Positions 6,016 through 49,337 of a DNA stretch of 64,000 nucleotides are shown piece by piece. The DNA comes from a virus. How positions within the stretch are numbered: position 1 is the stretch's first letter; each line of letters begins with the position of its first letter. The stretch spans positions 64,001-128,000 of IMG/VR virus record IMGVR_UViG_3300025660_000003, one strand, 5' to 3'. The position numbers were made by a program, and so were the translations under genes. The notes under the pieces were generated by a model. The model did not search any database. It saw only the letters and a program-made list of their open reading frames with translations, and was not told the origin of the DNA.

Positions 6016-9000
6016 ATGGCTTTCACGCCGCCAACGAACCCCGAGGACAGCTACGCACTGAGCCCCTTTGGGTTCGGTCCGTTCCCGCTCCCAGGGGAGT
6101 CGGTTGACGTAGCTCCTCCGCACCCGGTCGGAGGCGGCTACGGCGGTGTCGGCTTCTTGTCGGCGGGCGATCTCCCGGACAACGGCAGCCCCTACGGCCT
6201 GGGCTCCTACGGCTCCCGGTGGTTCAGCCGTCCCAAGGTCAACATCAGCGGCGGCTACGGTGGTGACCCCTACGGCCTGGGCGGCTACGGCAGCACAGAG
6301 GTCACGCCCCCCTACATCTCATCGGCCATCTCGCTCGACGGGTTCACCATCGAGATCTTCTTCAGCGAGGAGGTGGACACCACCAACCCCGCGTTGACCG
6401 ACCCGACCAGCTACACGCTGGAGCCCATCACAGGGGCAGCTCCCGCGACGGTGCTCTCGGTTCACATCGAGAAGCTGGGGTCACTCAATCTGGCGGCTGG
6501 TGACACCATCGTGGGGGCAACCTCCGTCGTCATCACCCACACAGGGACGACCCAGGGCGGGATGTACAAGGCCCACGCCACGGGCCTGACCGACATCGCT
6601 GGCAACCCGATCATCGACGCTGACGCCCCGTTCCTGGCGAAGGGTGAGCCCCCGACCTTCACGGTCAGCCTCCCGGCCCCGGATGCGGGCAACGAGCTGC
6701 TGGTCACCTTCAGCCACCCGATGTTGCAGAATGCGGGTGGCTTCCCGGCCATGGGCAGCTACGACTTCGCGGTAGCCGCCAGCAACCCCTACCCCATCGA
6801 CCTGGTGCCGACGAGCATCGTCGTGGTCAGTCCGACCCAGGTTCGGCTCGGGGTCAAGGGCATGACCTCGTTGAACTACGACCTGACGGTCAGCGAGGCG
6901 TTCGCCTTCGCCTTCGACACGACGCTGGGGCTCCGCAACTGCACCATCTACGAGCAAGGGGCCGGGACCATCACGGAGTCGGCGGGCTACCTGGTCTGGT
7001 CAAGGCCGAAGAATGCGGGCTCATTTGGCCGAGAGTGGCGGGACACCAGCGGCACCATCACCCCGCTGACATCGACCCTGCGAGGTGACTGCACCTTCGA
7101 CTTCAGCAACGCGGCCTTCGACCCGCCGATCTCCATGTTCCCGGCCCCGGAGATCTGCGGCATTGCGATCCAGGACGGTGTGCCAGGCAACGGCATCGCC
7201 GTTTACATCACTCTCCAGCAGAGCATCACCGGGGTCGAGCAGATCCGAATGCAGTCGGGCACCTTCGACATGACGGTGGATGCCACCTGGTCGGACGCGG
7301 TTCACACGATCTCCTTTGTGCGGAACATGCAGGCGGGCATCGTCACCTTCTTGCTAGACGAGCAGCCGCTCACCTCCACTGCGATTGCGAACGTGGACGG
7401 CCCGGCAGATTCCCAGGCGGCCATCCGCTTCGGCTTCTACGGTGGCGGATGGGACATCAGCGGGGTGCGGCTCCACAGCGTCATCCTCACCAGCTCCACG
7501 ACGGTCTTCTCGTCTGCTTGGAACTTCCTGCACGGCCAGATCGGTCAGTTCCTTGGCTCCGACGTACTGACCCGTGACCGACTGCTGACGCAGCGAGGCC
7601 CGCTGGTCAAGGGCTGGGGTGACGCGACCCCAGCGACCGAAGCTGATGTCGCTGTGGTCATCAACGGCACGGCGGTCTCGGTAGCCGAGGTGAACCCCTA
7701 CATCGGCGGCATCGTCATGGCGGTCCCGGTGCCGCTCCTCCCGCTAGGCGACCCGCAGAGCAGCGTGGCGGTGGACTACAAGTGGTTCAAGAGCCCCGTC
7801 ATGGAGCTGGCCGGGTTGAACACCCTCGGCCTGGTGCTCAACAAGTTCGACTGCGCCCGCAGAGGCCACCACGACCCGGCAGCCCACGGCGATCAGGTCC
7901 AGGTTCTTCCGGGACAGCCCGACTTCATGGCGAATCCCGGCGAGCCCAAGGGAGCCGTGGACATCCACCGCTTCCCGATGAGCGTGGTCCTCGGGCCGAT
8001 GAGCCGGAGCGAACCGCTCTACATCGGCCACCGCTACATGGGGTTCGAGCGGGCGTACTCAGCTCTGACCAACAGCCCGACCACCCTGCTGCTCAACCAG
8101 GCCCCAGGGCGCGTCTCCGTGCCCGGCTTCGAGCGGGAGGTAGCAGGGGTCAGTGTGGCCTACGAAGGGCTCGTGAAGCCCGTAGACGCCGCTCCTGCGT
8201 GGGCTCTGGATGGAGCTGACTACGGGGCGGTGGACCACGATGCCGACGCCGGGATCGACCTTGGGACCTACACGATCATCGACCCCATCGTGGGGGATGC
8301 AGGGCCGACCGAGACGGCAACGGTCTACCACCGGGGCCTGGATCTCACATACCCGTCGAGCATCAACCTGGTGGCCCGCTTCCAGACGGCAGCTACGGCC
8401 TTGTTCGACACGGACCACGTCGCCCCTTCCCCGGCTCCGACCGGGCTGGTGACGGTCCCCACGGCTGATGGTGTGTTCACGGGGGTCGGGTTCGGCATCC
8501 ACGACAACCGGCACCTGTACTTCTGCGGGGTGCTCCTGATCAACGGTGTCGAGCACGTCGGCCTGCTGCTCAACCCGAAGCGCATCCACGAATGGGAGTC
8601 CTGGGCCATCGGGCCGAAGTCCATCCTGACGGCCTCCTCGCAGAGTCGAGGGGTCTTCCCGTCCTCGCAGGTCCCCACGGGGTTCAAGGTCGGGTCGAAG
8701 TTCCAGCGGCTCACGGGCACACAGGTCGGGGTCTACACGGCGACGAGCGTTGTGGCTCAGAGCGACGGCACAACCACCGTGGATTTCACGCCCGAACTTC
8801 CGTCGCCCTGGGACATCTACGGAAACAAGTACACGGAGGTCGTATTCGAGACGCGGGCGAGCCTCAAGCCGTTCACCTATCGGCTCGACCTCGACACGGA
8901 CCAGCAGGTCGCAGAGCTGCGGATCTCCGGGGAGACGCGGGGGGTGGTCACCCGCATCGACGGCAACGTGCCTCCGGTCCCCGTGGCAGCTCAGACATCG

Positions 9001-46658: not shown

Positions 46659-47441
46659 TCAGCGACCCAGGGCCATTCTCACTGATTTCTCGGGGTCGGC
46701 TTTGAAGTCTATTTCCCACACTTCCACTACAGGGACACCTTGAGCAGCGAGGAACGCGAGCTTTCTTTTGTACCTGGAGGCGGTGCGCTTCTGCGAAGAG
46801 TATTTGGGGCCGTTGGGGTAAGCGCGGGGGTCGGCGTGCCAGAAGGTCCCGTTGAACTCCAGGGCGGTGTTGATGATGGGCAGGTAGTAGTCCACCACAG
46901 CCGCGAATCGTCCGTGATCCCCCCTCATCCGATGCTGTGCCTGGTACGTGACGCCGAGCTGGTCGAGAATGGGGGCAACCTGCTGTTCCAGCTTGGACAC
47001 GCGAGGGATGCGGCCCTCGCTGATAGCTCTGGCGACGGACAAGGAGATTTTGGCCTTGGTCTCCTCTGTGTGGGCATAGCGGCCCTCGGCTTTCCTCCGG
47101 GTGTTTTGCCTGATCATCCGCAAACCCTGAGCTTGTCGGGTGGCCTCTGGGACGACATAGGGCTTGGTGACGACTCGCTGCACCAGCCCAGTCGATCGGG
47201 CCTTGTAGGCGCAATCGGGGGAACACAGCAAGACATCGGTCTTCGACCTGGCCACCCGGGATGGCGGGCGGGTCACAGGAACTCCACAGACTCCACACGG
47301 TTCAGTAGATGAGGTGGACTTGTTGGAGGCCCGTAGCGAGTAAGAGCAGGTACGAGAGCAAGTCGTCTGCCGGCCATGTTTGAGGCGGGTAGGGTCGGCT
47401 TCGTAGGGCGTCCCGCAGACGGGACATCGACGTTTAACCAA
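46659..47441 (-). CDS. Free-standing Vsr/DUF559-like (putative homing) endonuclease with Zn fingers and NUMOD3-like motif
   Basis: CPVCG...CSRTC, CGVCG...CSPDC, HTEETKAKIS, SKLEQ, VVDYYLP...LEFNGTFWH; lower GC; start uncertain (TTG 47441 or ATG 47513). Confidence 0.75.
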   Translation of the reverse strand: MVKRRCPVCGTPYEADPTRLKHGRQTTCSRTCSYSLRASNKSTSSTEPCGVCGVPVTRPPSRVARSKTDVLLCSPDCAYKARSTGLVQRVVTKPYVVPEATRQAQGLRMIRQNTRRKAEGRYAHTEETKAKISLSVARAISEGRIPRVSKLEQQVAPILDQLGVTYQAQHRMRGDHGRFAAVVDYYLPIINTALEFNGTFWHADPRAYPNGPKYSSQKRTASRYKRKLAFLAAQGVPVVEVWEIDFKADPEKSVRMALGR

Positions 47442-47451
47442 GGAGCACCCC

Positions 47452-47580
47452 GTGGGTGAAGGAGAACACAGCCGTAGGGCGCAGGTGATCCGGCTCCGAC
47501 TCGGAGATTGCATCAGGGTGCTTCGTCACCTCGATGCAGAGTCGGTTGATGCCGTGGTCACTGATCCGCCCTACGGTTGA
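47452..47580 (+). CDS. DNA methyltransferase N-terminal fragment with catalytic DPPY, 42 aa
   Basis: Not in ORF track; AAGGAG RBS; MGEGEHSRRAQVIRLRLGDCIRVLRHLDAESVDAVVTDPPYG then TGA. Confidence 0.8.
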   Translation: MGEGEHSRRAQVIRLRLGDCIRVLRHLDAESVDAVVTDPPYG

Positions 47581-49337
47581 CCATACCTGGACTGGAGTTC
47601 ATGGGGAAGGACTGGGACGCCCCCTGGAAGCTCGGGGCCGGGATGATGAAGCCTGGCATCGGCGACCGGGACATCCCCTGGCCTGCCTACGGAGCCCAGA
47701 AGTTCGGGGGCTCGAACCCCACCTGTCAGACCTGCGGCGGTCGGGCGAGGGGCAGCAACAGGTGTTCCTGCGAGGAGCCTGACTGGCACGTCAGCGGGAA
47801 GCCCCTGTCTGACGACGTGAACGACTCTGCCAGCCCGGTAGTTCAGCGACAGCGGTTCCAGGCCTGGTGCGTCCTCTGGCTGGTGGAGGTCTACCGGGTG
47901 CTCAAGCCTGGTGGGGTCATCAAGGTCTTCGGAGCGACCCGGATGTTCCACCGGATGGCGGCGGCGATGGAGGAGGCGGGGTTCTTCCTCCCGCCTGAGC
48001 ACAGCCTGGAAGCCTGGATGTATGGGTGCCTGTCTGAGGACACTGAGGTATTGACCGAGGACGGGTGGGCTCCCTACCATAGAGCCACGGTTGGAACGCT
48101 GGTGATGGGGTTCGACCCTGTGACGGAGCGGTTCATCCAGCAGCCTGTGGAGGAGACCTTTGAGTACCCCTACGACCGAGAGGCTTTCCGAATCCACGGA
48201 GACGGAACTGACCAGATCGTTTCCGTCAAGCACCGCTGTCTCGTCGGGCGAGACGGTAAGTGGGAGGTCGTCGTCTCGGGCGACCTGGCGGAAACTGAGA
48301 CAATGCCCTGCCTGCAAAGCGGAGTTCATTCCGAAGGCGTCGGGTCAGAAGGCATGTGGGCGCTCCTGCTCGAACCGGCTGCGGGTCTACAAGAAGAAGC
48401 CCTTGTCCGAGCGGAAGGGCCGGATGGTGGCCTGCTCGGTCTGCGGGACCGAGAAGTGGTACGCGGAGGCGTGGCTGCGGAAGGGCATCAAGCAGCCGAC
48501 GTGTTCCAGGAGGTGCAACGGAGTGCATCGGGGGCAGGACTGGGCGAAGCACGGGCACAAGGGAGCGGAAGCCAGAACACCAGAGAGCTACCAGCGTGCC
48601 GCCCAGAAGATGACCGGCTCGAAGAACCCGGCATGGAAGGGCGGGGTGACGTACGTGTCCCACAGAGGGAACTACAAGCGGACCAAATGCGTCCGTTGTC
48701 CGCCGGAGTATCGGTCGATGGCTCGGTCGAACGGGTACGTCGCAGAGCACAGGCTCCTGGTGGCGAGGGAACTGGGCCGAATGTTGACGAGGACCGAAGT
48801 GGTTCATCATGTGAACCACGACTCTCAGGACAATCGGCTGGTGAACCTGATGCTGTTCGCCTCGAATCGGGATCACAAGCTGTTCGAGCACCACGGAGCA
48901 CCAGCCCCGATCTGGTGCGGGTCAGCGCACGAGTCGAGCGTATCCACTACACCGGCACCGTCTGGTGCGTGAGGGTGCCTACCGGGGCTTTCGTGGTCCG
49001 CCGCAAGGGCATGGCATTCGTCACTGGCAACAGCGGCTTTCCGAAGTACCTCAACACCAGCAAGGCCATCGACAAGGCGGCTCGTGGGGTGCCACAAGGA
49101 GGACCCGACGAGACCAGCCCGAACCACGGCAAGTACAAGACACAGGCCACTGAGGGTTCCCGTGGGTCGGCTGATGTGGGTCAGGGGTACGGTGCCGGTC
49201 CAGGGGCCTTCATGCGTGAGGCCGGGACTCTGGTGGACCTCCCGTTGACGACGCCCGATGCAGAAAAGTTCGACGGATGGGCCACGGCTCTGAAACCAGG
49301 GTGGGAGCCATTTCTGGTAGGAGTGAAAGCAGAATGA
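47577..49337 (+). CDS. DNA methyltransferase second fragment, intein-containing
   Basis: GLEFMGKDWD...EVYRVLKPGG...FGATRMFHR...WMYG|intein|SGFPK...SKAIDK...GWATALKPGWEP. Confidence 0.8.
   Translation: MTIPGLEFMGKDWDAPWKLGAGMMKPGIGDRDIPWPAYGAQKFGGSNPTCQTCGGRARGSNRCSCEEPDWHVSGKPLSDDVNDSASPVVQRQRFQAWCVLWLVEVYRVLKPGGVIKVFGATRMFHRMAAAMEEAGFFLPPEHSLEAWMYGCLSEDTEVLTEDGWAPYHRATVGTLVMGFDPVTERFIQQPVEETFEYPYDREAFRIHGDGTDQIVSVKHRCLVGRDGKWEVVVSGDLAETETMPCLQSGVHSEGVGSEGMWALLLEPAAGLQEEALVRAEGPDGGLLGLRDREVVRGGVAAEGHQAADVFQEVQRSASGAGLGEARAQGSGSQNTRELPACRPEDDRLEEPGMEGRGDVRVPQRELQADQMRPLSAGVSVDGSVERVRRRAQAPGGEGTGPNVDEDRSGSSCEPRLSGQSAGEPDAVRLESGSQAVRAPRSTSPDLVRVSARVERIHYTGTVWCVRVPTGAFVVRRKGMAFVTGNSGFPKYLNTSKAIDKAARGVPQGGPDETSPNHGKYKTQATEGSRGSADVGQGYGAGPGAFMREAGTLVDLPLTTPDAEKFDGWATALKPGWEPFLVGVKAE
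48027..49031 (+). mobile_element. Intein (335 aa) in the methyltransferase
   Basis: Starts CLSEDTEVLTEDGW, block B VSVKHRCLV, ends YTGTVWCVRVPTGAFVVRRKGMAFVTGN followed by Ser; removal restores WMYG-SGFPK. Confidence 0.9.
48160..48972 (+). CDS. HNH homing endonuclease encoded in the +1 frame inside the intein
   Basis: Two Zn fingers, GSKNPAWKGG, GYVAEHRLLVARELGRML...EVVHHVNHDSQDNRLVNL; GGAGGAG 4 nt before TTG 48160. Confidence 0.85.
   Translation: MSTPTTERLSESTETELTRSFPSSTAVSSGETVSGRSSSRATWRKLRQCPACKAEFIPKASGQKACGRSCSNRLRVYKKKPLSERKGRMVACSVCGTEKWYAEAWLRKGIKQPTCSRRCNGVHRGQDWAKHGHKGAEARTPESYQRAAQKMTGSKNPAWKGGVTYVSHRGNYKRTKCVRCPPEYRSMARSNGYVAEHRLLVARELGRMLTRTEVVHHVNHDSQDNRLVNLMLFASNRDHKLFEHHGAPAPIWCGSAHESSVSTTPAPSGA

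Follow-up and report, generated by a model that had tools for sequence, protein, structure and literature searches.

Is a phage DNA methyltransferase gene that is interrupted, directly behind the codons for its catalytic motif, by 14 nucleotides (nt) including a stop codon still translated into one protein, and if so, how? The gene lies in a 64,000-nt stretch of viral DNA (positions 64,001 to 128,000 of IMG/VR virus record IMGVR_UViG_3300025660_000003), here referred to as the window. The window comes from a 141.7-kb fragment of an uncultured-virus record (65% GC), and the CheckV completeness of only 27% at 141.7 kb implies a very large phage. An earlier note on this DNA had offered a ribosome hop, a stop-start split into two polypeptides, or the scar of a mobile element as readings of the break. 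The ribosome hop is the best supported of the three, given the codon layout, the phases of related gaps, their G-free spacers, a covarying RNA helix, and selection on both flanks. From these features we infer hopping and consider it likely that the 14 nt, borne on a homing-endonuclease cassette, serve as a gap for programmed translational bypassing in the form of a short stop-hop. Somewhat less firmly, we favor the wider reading that the window would belong to a large, heritable family of 4- to 24-nt bypass gaps at one fixed methyltransferase codon, with a hop driven by the helix and spread by a Vsr-like endonuclease cassette. The parts of the interrupted gene, named in the terms of the proposed hop, are as follows.

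47452..47577, + strand: methyltransferase open reading frame 1 (ORF1); GTG start, 42 codons, the last being the take-off Gly codon after the catalytic DPPY
47563-47574, + strand: DPPY catalytic motif; the DNA reads GAT CCG CCC TAC
47575..47577, + strand: putative take-off codon GGT (Gly42)
47578..47580, + strand: UGA stop, abutting the take-off codon on its 3' side; the next base is C
47581..47588, + strand: spacer CCATACCT; G-free, with no early landing site possible
47589..47591, + strand: putative landing codon GGA, the first GG downstream of the take-off codon
47592..49337, + strand: methyltransferase ORF2; resumes at CTG (LEFMGKDWDAPWK...), contains an intein, and terminates at ...ALKPGWEPFLVGVKAE-stop

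ORF1 is preceded by the Shine-Dalgarno (SD) sequence AAGGAG at 47440-47445. Its open frame, 47452..47580, terminates as DPPYG-stop (...VDAVVTDPPYG-TGA), and its N terminus can be aligned with homologs (IRLRLGDC...VDAVVTDPPYG). The 14 extra nt had been described correctly in every detail: positions 47575-47591 read GGT TGA CCATACCT GGA, and deleting 47575-47588, or equally 47578-47591, restores the canonical DPPYGLEFMGKDWDAPWK. Downstream of the landing codon the DNA reads CTG GAG TTC ATG GGG AAG GAC TGG GAC, and the frame open from 47577 gives (MTIP)GLEFMGKDWDAPWK... and runs to 49337. Readthrough of the TGA in the window, which the earlier note had already discounted, was rejected, since its product, PYLDWSSWGRTG, has no homology. 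The DPPYGLEFMGKDWDAPWK junction is unbroken in the annotated mycobacteriophage methyltransferases Brusacoram gp55, Atcoo gp55, and ShiLan gp65; 78 of 80 related viral loci are uninterrupted at the junction, and ~160 homologs read DPPY-G-LEFMGKDWD continuously. By its DPPY motif and the match of its junction to these annotated enzymes, the host gene is a beta-class DNA methyltransferase of the PF01555 type. ORF2 scores 22.2 bits against PF01555 (N6_N4_Mtase), under the cutoff of 26.7, because the gene contains only part of the domain.

Interrupted members of the methyltransferase family

Viral, metagenome, and cellular collections were scanned for the DPPY codons followed by 7 to 37 nt of any kind and the EFMG codons, and the matches were then passed through a family filter. 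The scan yielded 54 unique interrupted family sites. With one more gene, L119/L172 (16-nt gap, GGA TAA CCATACCATA GGA), 55 distinct phage or metagenome genes from independent assemblies are broken at the same codon, far beyond chance. Stop-free inserts were absent from the scan's family sites, and none of the 52 pattern matches in cellular genomes belongs to the family. The viral collection by itself contains at least 120 uninterrupted members.

The gaps are 4, 5, 6, 7, 8, 9, 10, 11, 12, 13, 14, 15, 16, or 24 nt long. At 48 of the 54 unique sites the layout is TAY GGN-stop-spacer-GGN followed by a Leu or Ile codon (YTN); among the remaining six, the stop follows a Tyr or Leu codon in five, and one has a rare TTA. 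Taken modulo 3, gap length at the 48 sites falls into class 2 in 28 cases, class 0 in 12, and class 1 in 8, and the in-frame gaps hold one or two stops (e.g., GGT TAG TCACTC TAA GGT in L087). With three phases and these stops, neither one frameshift nor one readthrough can serve the whole set. The best-scoring relative, L005 (a 436-kb contig, 44% protein identity), reads GGT TAG CATACCAC GGA CTT, with length and layout as in the window. The insert is therefore not unique to this genome; of the two properties that the earlier note had proposed to follow in homologs, the stop is kept at nearly all sites, whereas the length varies from 4 to 24 nt.

Gap presence is inherited. In a tree of 200 N-terminal sequences, 40 of the 44 gap-bearing rows fall into one deep clade with only 4 intact rows, and gap presence changes 9 times on the tree versus 40 times in shuffles (0/500). 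Gap length differs between close relatives (for example 8, 10, and 14 nt inside one well-supported subclade), as expected for untranslated sequence. The downstream ORFs in the landing frame, 150 to 620 amino acids (aa) long, are intact in nearly all loci, and the ratio of nonsynonymous to synonymous substitution rates (dN/dS) between gap-bearing pairs is 0.03 to 0.28 downstream of the gap, at a dS of 0.7 to 2.9; for ORF2 of the window it is 0.11 to 0.28 in comparisons with L165, L141, and L155. Divergence of the 5' segments is on a par with that of the 3' parts (nucleotide identity of 74% versus 69% between the window and L165 and of 64% versus 78% between L089 and L103). Together, the low dN/dS, high dS, and equally diverged 5' segments indicate that the ORF behind the gap was kept by selection long after the gap arose. 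Judged from these substitution patterns, both flanking ORFs are under purifying selection; joined end to end, they yield the sequence of the uninterrupted protein. Directly behind the gap, the Gly and Leu/Ile codons, neither of which was demanded by the scan, are conserved with synonymous variation, which implies that translation in the landing frame begins at or before those codons.

A few members of the collection vary in other ways. L155/L205 have a non-Gly take-off codon, GGG CTT TGA CTG (Leu-stop-Leu). In L149/L183 and L127 the stop follows Tyr (TAC TGA AC GGT and TAT TAA T GGC, respectively), and AAC or AAT would be the landing triplet. L096 (positions 8279-8311), a high-GC sequence outside the main clade, has a 4-nt gap, TAT TTA G GGC, where the A site would hold the rare TTA instead of a stop; UAG would offer tRNA-Tyr a landing match at two of three bases, and the arrangement recalls the UUA-triggered gaps of phage phiHau3. 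L271 (IMGVR_UViG_3300025669_002088, 125.7 kb) has four matches to the uninterrupted DPPYGLEFMG-coding pattern within 4.2 kb; one gene, L271_2217, is gapless yet lies inside the gap-bearing clade and has a 10-bp helix complement.

Spacers and the RNA helix at the putative take-off site

The spacers of the family are nearly devoid of G, with 3 G in 213 nt. A GG earlier than the landing codon occurs at 1 of 44 sites (22 expected), and a G directly precedes the landing codon at 0 of 42 sites (14 expected; 0/2000 simulations). Such avoidance would be demanded by a peptidyl-tRNA-Gly that scans the spacer, and neither a restart nor a dead scar would require it. In the window, the take-off GGT and the landing GGA are identical at two of three bases. 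The CCATAC of the insert does echo the upstream CCCTAC, as the earlier note had remarked; its suggestion of an insertion scar, a private duplication, does not hold, as the motif is common to the 14- and 16-nt gap class (CCATACCT, CCATACCATA, CTATACCA, and CATACCAC).

The take-off codon is also part of a predicted RNA helix, the two arms of which are as follows.

47469..47481, + strand: helix 5' arm CAGCCGTAGGGCG, within codons 6-10 (S-R-R-A)
47567..47579, + strand: helix 3' arm CGCCCTACGGTTG, covering the Pro-Pro-Tyr codons, the entire take-off GGT, and the UG of the UGA stop

The 13-bp helix of the window, with one G.U pair, forms the base of a long minimum-free-energy hairpin (-74.8 kcal/mol, z = -4.3; for L005, z = -5.6). 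Across the family, the best Watson-Crick match to the PPY-Gly codons has a mean length of 10.0 bp in 52 gap-bearing genes versus 5.1 bp in 157 intact ones. Two forms can be distinguished: a near form with the 5' arm 6 to 30 nt away, which includes most 8-nt gaps, and a far form, to which the window belongs, with the 5' arm 70 to 100 nt away, inside the first ~20 codons. In the far class, the wobble position of the first Pro codon is paired as CG in 15 genes, AT in 6, GC in 1, and TA in 1, and that of the second as GC in 17, AT in 3, TA in 3, and CG in 1. Among 24 far-class genes, the third base of the take-off Gly codon is paired in 21 and the stop's U in 22; of the latter pairs, 13 are G.U, which places the helix in the sense RNA. 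In 23 aligned sequences, 85.5% of cells are paired compared to 78.3% in shuffles (0/500) and 32 to 46% in slid controls, and the covariation score is 0.234 versus 0.123 in shuffles (0/500). RNAalifold recovers the same helix on its own. By covariation, the gap is accompanied by an mRNA helix that contains the take-off codon, and a stimulatory role is predicted for it. The covariation with sense-strand G.U pairs, together with the G-free spacers, points to selection on the translation of this mRNA.

These elements suggest the following course of events. Ribosomes would start at GTG 47452 and decode 42 codons, melting the long hairpin on the way, and would then stall, with GGU (47575-77) and its peptidyl-tRNA-Gly occupying the P site and UGA-C the A site. 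The hairpin's 5' strand, now free behind the ribosome, would allow the 13-bp basal helix (47469-81/47567-79) to re-zip; because re-zipping needs the Pro-Pro-Tyr-Gly codons, mRNA would be pulled from the ribosome and the take-off codon from the P site. The codon-anticodon pair would then break, and the ribosome would slide across the G-free spacer CCAUACCU, which offers nothing for the Gly anticodon to pair with. The peptidyl-tRNA would re-pair at the first GG (GGA, 47589-91), and decoding would restart at CUG 47592. The result would be a single chain, ...VVTDPPYG-LEFMGKDWD..., in the register of the uninterrupted homologs, from which the intein is then spliced out; the hop product would hold the junction peptide ...VVTDPPYGLEFMGK (...AVVTDPPYGLEFMGK).

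The homing-endonuclease cassette

The space between the two methyltransferase genes of the window is occupied by a further gene.

46659..47441, - strand: homing-endonuclease gene, likely start TTG 47441 (mechanical ORF to 47513), divergent from the methyltransferase gene

In the encoded protein, two Zn-ribbon-like CxxC...C motifs and a weak NUMOD3-like motif are accompanied by a nuclease domain of the Vsr/I-Bth0305I type at the C terminus. It matches PHROG families labeled "homing endonuclease" and "HNH endonuclease," the matches being PHROG 3339 ("homing endonuclease," 6e-10) and PHROGs 559/1271. A Pfam search with it found nothing above threshold (NUMOD3 and MTES_1575 were sub-threshold only), and a sequence search against solved structures gave no match. 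An AlphaFold2 model of medium confidence (predicted local distance difference test score, 74.5) has the Vsr structures 1cw0/1vsr and the I-Bth0305I catalytic domain 3r3p as its top Foldseek matches (E values of 6e-4 to 3e-3, probability of 1.0). According to the model, the catalytic domain is a Vsr-type nuclease fold. Elsewhere in the 141.7-kb record, neither a second copy of the endonuclease nor a second gap of this kind was found.

Endonuclease homologs (54 to 66% identity) or their decayed remnants adjoin 13 of 32 gap loci versus 0 of 129 intact loci (Fisher, 7e-11); the sole endonuclease matches at intact loci, L062/L345, have 26% identity. All 13 adjoining loci are of the far-helix class, the homolog lies on the opposite strand every time, and in 7 loci the aligned endonuclease N terminus is exactly 126 nt from the DPPY codons. 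A Pfam scan of ORFs within 1.7 kb upstream of the 32 gap loci detected no HNH domain and chiefly the other methyltransferase gene; downstream ORFs contain HNH_3 in 5 of 54. The edge of the exchanged DNA can be seen by comparing L091 (12-nt gap, with endonuclease) and L162 (8-nt gap, without it): their DNA is 90% identical from the landing codon on, 54% identical in the 120 nt ahead of the gap, and unrelated further upstream, so the exchanged segment terminates exactly at the gap. Given this linkage and the recombination boundary at the edge of the element, the gap travels with a homing-endonuclease mobile cassette.

In L165, L169, L122, L141, L130, and L187, the endonuclease is decaying and yet gap and helix are retained, a pattern of "hit and run." Decay takes the form of an internal stop (L165:2687-3478), a frameshift, or remnants of 50 to 70 aa, and the L169 copy lies at 965-1668; in L005 the gap is kept and the endonuclease is absent. 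At the DNA level, the cassette would consist of the divergent Vsr/I-Bth0305I-like endonuclease and a re-coded 5' segment of the methyltransferase gene with the helix, the gap forming its 3' edge. By analogy with the T4 system discussed below, the gap divides the gene where its DNA is most conserved and thereby probably protects the carrier against its own nuclease.

The two divergent genes of the window are 10 nt apart. The TTG start of the endonuclease (complement of 47439-47441) overlaps the methyltransferase SD sequence AAGGAG (47440-47445), so that the ribosome-binding site of each gene lies within or overlaps the start of the other, and any promoters would sit there (47440-47455).

Alternatives to a ribosome hop and known bypassing systems

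Among the alternatives, the one that survives best, though we regard it as unlikely, is a split gene, in which termination at UGA would release a 42-aa DPPYG peptide and a restart, at TTG 47577 or at the ATG of FMGK, would produce the rest as a second chain, the two assembling into active enzyme. There is precedent for genes that stay functional after homing endonucleases have broken them into pieces (the Campylobacter case, as described in bioRxiv 10.1101/2022.08.31.505936), the methyltransferase family is already divided between genes in mycobacteriophages and in the window, and the EFMGK ATG is kept at every site. The TTGA overlap of stop and start to which the earlier note had drawn attention is present at TTG 47577; as a general mechanism it is not supported, since 34 of 51 sites have no ATG, GTG, or TTG in the landing frame ahead of the landing codon and L005 has TTA in place of the TTG of the window. 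A conserved start with its own ribosome-binding site ahead of the second ORF, which a split would lead one to expect, was not found: no SD sequence lies at a usable distance, and the GGAG located 3 nt before the ATG in the window is absent in L005. A restart at the FMGK ATG would free the Gly and Leu codons behind the gap from selection, yet they are conserved synonymously, and a restart has no use for spacers devoid of G or for the exclusion of G directly ahead of the landing codon.

Slightly less credible is a dead gene, with the methyltransferase inactivated by the cassette, the gap an immunity scar only, and the downstream conservation a relic of recent invasion. This would fit the linkage of the gap to the endonuclease and the recombination boundary at the gap, and homing elements can spread despite a cost, here to an enzyme that is probably dispensable for the phage. 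The invasion does not look recent, as the 5' cassette segments are as diverged as the 3' parts, with dS of >1 and downstream dN/dS of 0.06 to 0.28. Nor do the genes look dead: nearly all loci have an intact downstream ORF, in-frame inteins included, the gap outlasts decay or loss of the endonuclease (L165, L169, L141, L130, and L005), and the helix covariation with sense-strand G.U pairs and the G-free spacers indicate selection on translation of the mRNA. Of the element scar proposed in the earlier note, one half stands, namely, that a homing-endonuclease cassette has its 3' boundary at the gap; the gap would be a maintained device and not a dead scar.

It is quite improbable that the spacer is translated, with a -1 (or +2) frameshift at GGU-UGA giving DPPYG-LTIPG-LEFMGK, readthrough serving the in-frame relatives, and the insert forming an extra loop. 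In its favor, the landing frame of the 14-nt class encodes related peptides (L-T-I-P-G, L-R-I-P-G, and L-A-Y-H-G), and the 12-nt class reads G-stop-Y-H-G with third-position changes. However, CCC UAC GGU UGA contains no slippery site, and neither CGG nor UUG allows a tRNA-Gly from GGU to re-pair. The opposite shift is needed for gaps of 4, 7, 10, and 13 nt, and L087 needs two readthroughs. In addition, DPPYGLEFMGKDWD is length invariant in ~160 intact homologs, whereas gap length varies among close relatives. Simple frameshifting was rejected on the same lack of a slippery site and on the occurrence of family gaps in all three phases. Finally, although the record is an uncultured-virus contig, there is almost no chance that the break is an assembly or sequencing artifact of the metagenomic record, since the 14-nt layout recurs in independent assemblies (L005/L086/L113, L165, L141, L122, L194/L206, L169, and L112) and there are 55 related sites overall.

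Several observations weigh against programmed bypassing as we have described it, or against parts of it. The family sequences are related, so that the counts overstate the number of independent events. The landing codon is GGN at 44 of 48 sites; at the other four it is AGC, AGT, CGC, or GAC. The caveat already raised in the earlier note, that GGT and GGA are not identical codons, stands: GGU and GGA differ at the wobble base and are normally decoded by different tRNA-Gly species. Over the family, exact identity of take-off and landing codons is not enriched (20 of 48 sites versus 33% expected, P = 0.15), and codon pairs compatible with the same tRNA are not above expectation (31/48 versus ~28/48). 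A search for tRNA genes, with a special tRNA-Gly in mind, found none in the window or the 141.7-kb record. Spacer changes in the 12-nt class are codon-like (TACCAC, TACCAT, TATCAT, and CACCAT), which leaves room for readthrough at in-frame gaps. A hop of 8 nt would leave most of the helix's 3' arm inside the ribosome, so the pulling role is no more than a model. In our sample, no endonuclease adjoins the genes of the 8-nt near-helix class. Ribosome hopping and its efficiency, the pulling role of the helix, and the target of the nuclease are all points that we infer.

To our knowledge, natural bypassing is known from very few systems, namely T4 gene 60 and its homologs, the byps of yeast mitochondria, and the candidate gaps of phiHau3. 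In T4 gene 60/MobA, the bypass insert protects its carrier from its own nuclease, and a pulling role like the one modeled here has been proposed for the 5' stem-loop of gene 60 (bioRxiv 10.1101/2022.08.31.505936); the references for the gene 60 bypass and the MobA cassette, Huang 1988 and Bonocora 2011, are taken from bioRxiv 10.1101/2022.08.31.505936 and PMC5009743. The window shares with gene 60 a Gly take-off codon directly followed by a stop, a gap that would be left untranslated, a Gly codon as the putative landing site, an mRNA helix 5' of or around the take-off site, and the placement of the gap where the sequence of a phage enzyme gene is highly conserved. As with MobA, a free-standing homing endonuclease is linked to the gap, the cassette carries its own diverged 5' gene segment and ends at the gap, and the endonuclease has been lost in some lineages with the gap retained. 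There is no sequence homology between the two systems, however: the host gene is a topoisomerase there and a beta-class DNA methyltransferase here, and the gap is 50 nt (20 in one clade) there and 4 to 24 nt here. The gaps described here have no take-off stem-loop inside them and no SD-like element, and the helix pairs the take-off codon with upstream coding sequence. MobA is an HNH enzyme co-oriented with its host gene, whereas the endonuclease here is Vsr/I-Bth0305I-like and divergently transcribed. Membership in the homologous T4 gene 60/MobA family was rejected, as host gene and nuclease fold differ; the window holds an analogue.

The terminase gene of the Streptomyces phage phiHau3 has two 10-nt coding gaps, with the junction peptide identified by mass spectrometry (PMC10732093; Smith 2013 cited there). 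There, too, a short (7- to 10-nt) insert breaks the frame of a phage gene where the junction is strictly conserved, the trigger is a codon decoded slowly in the A site, local RNA structure is predicted, and the argument from length-invariant homologs is the same. The phiHau3 trigger is the rare UUA (a proposed regulatory sensor), found in 3 of 100 terminase genes and without an endonuclease cassette. Here, in contrast, we find a stop codon as the putative trigger, a large family, and a covarying helix, and one relative, L096, resembles the UUA type. Synthetic stop-hops in Escherichia coli are low-efficiency laboratory constructs (Weiss 1987, as cited in PMC5009743), and no natural (in-frame) stop-hop was known as of a 2016 review (PMC5009743). 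In these constructs, as proposed here, peptidyl-tRNA passes over a stop and re-pairs with a similar codon several nucleotides further along, and relatives of the window with GGT TGA GGC, GGC TAG GGT, or CTT TGA CTG have the same form. The byp elements of Magnusiomyces capitatus mitochondria (Lang 2014, as cited in PMC5009743 and PMC10732093) are likewise numerous short frame-breaking inserts that are tolerated via bypassing and spread as mobile DNA. They differ in their length of 27 to 55 nt, their mitochondrial setting, their occurrence at many sites in each genome, and their trigger, an unassigned codon, whereas the gaps described here occupy one fixed site in one gene family.

A literature search found no paper linking DPPY or this methyltransferase family with bypassing. 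If the proposed bypassing is correct, this would be the first natural stop-hop family and, after T4 gene 60/MobA, the second, independently evolved endonuclease-plus-bypass cassette, so that the pairing of bypass gap and homing endonuclease would have evolved more than once. Such gaps might be a general route for selfish nucleases into the most conserved parts of genes without killing them. The family would provide dozens of natural variants of one minimal hop, differing in gap length, stop codon, codon pair, and near or far helix, from which the rules of take-off, sliding, and landing could be tested with simple reporters. Gene callers will annotate gap-bearing genes as broken or split.

The methyltransferase gene of the window carries a further mobile element downstream of the gap.

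48027..49031, + strand: intein in ORF2, 335 aa; Cys1 CLSEDTEVLT ... VTGN, with the +1 Ser at 49032

Its insertion site is that of the mycobacteriophage and L005 inteins, and an in-frame intein is retained downstream of the gap in the window, L005, L155, and L141. A complete ORF for a Zn-ribbon + HNH_3 endonuclease (48160-48972, + strand) is nested in the +1 frame of the intein, with a TTG start at 48160 and GGAGGAG 4 nt ahead of it. The intein frame is open across the nested ORF, leaving a "shadow" sequence of ~200 aa; the chance of such an open frame is ~5 to 9% per genome. The double-open arrangement also occurs in L155/L205, and L141 has a deletion remnant with both frames kept. Homologs of the nested HNH ORF are found at intact loci too, so it is not tied to the gap.

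The methyltransferase itself is encoded in permuted pieces, one upstream (44427/44637-46652, + strand) and one downstream with the DPPY part (47452-49337, + strand). The upstream piece comprises two copies of an ARKPL...TVA..GTG.LNI...GRWPANV...GGASRFF module and a C-terminal FxGxG (motif I) part (PF01555 positions 159-219). In L005 and L162 the pieces are arranged as in the window, and in the mycobacteriophages their order is the opposite.

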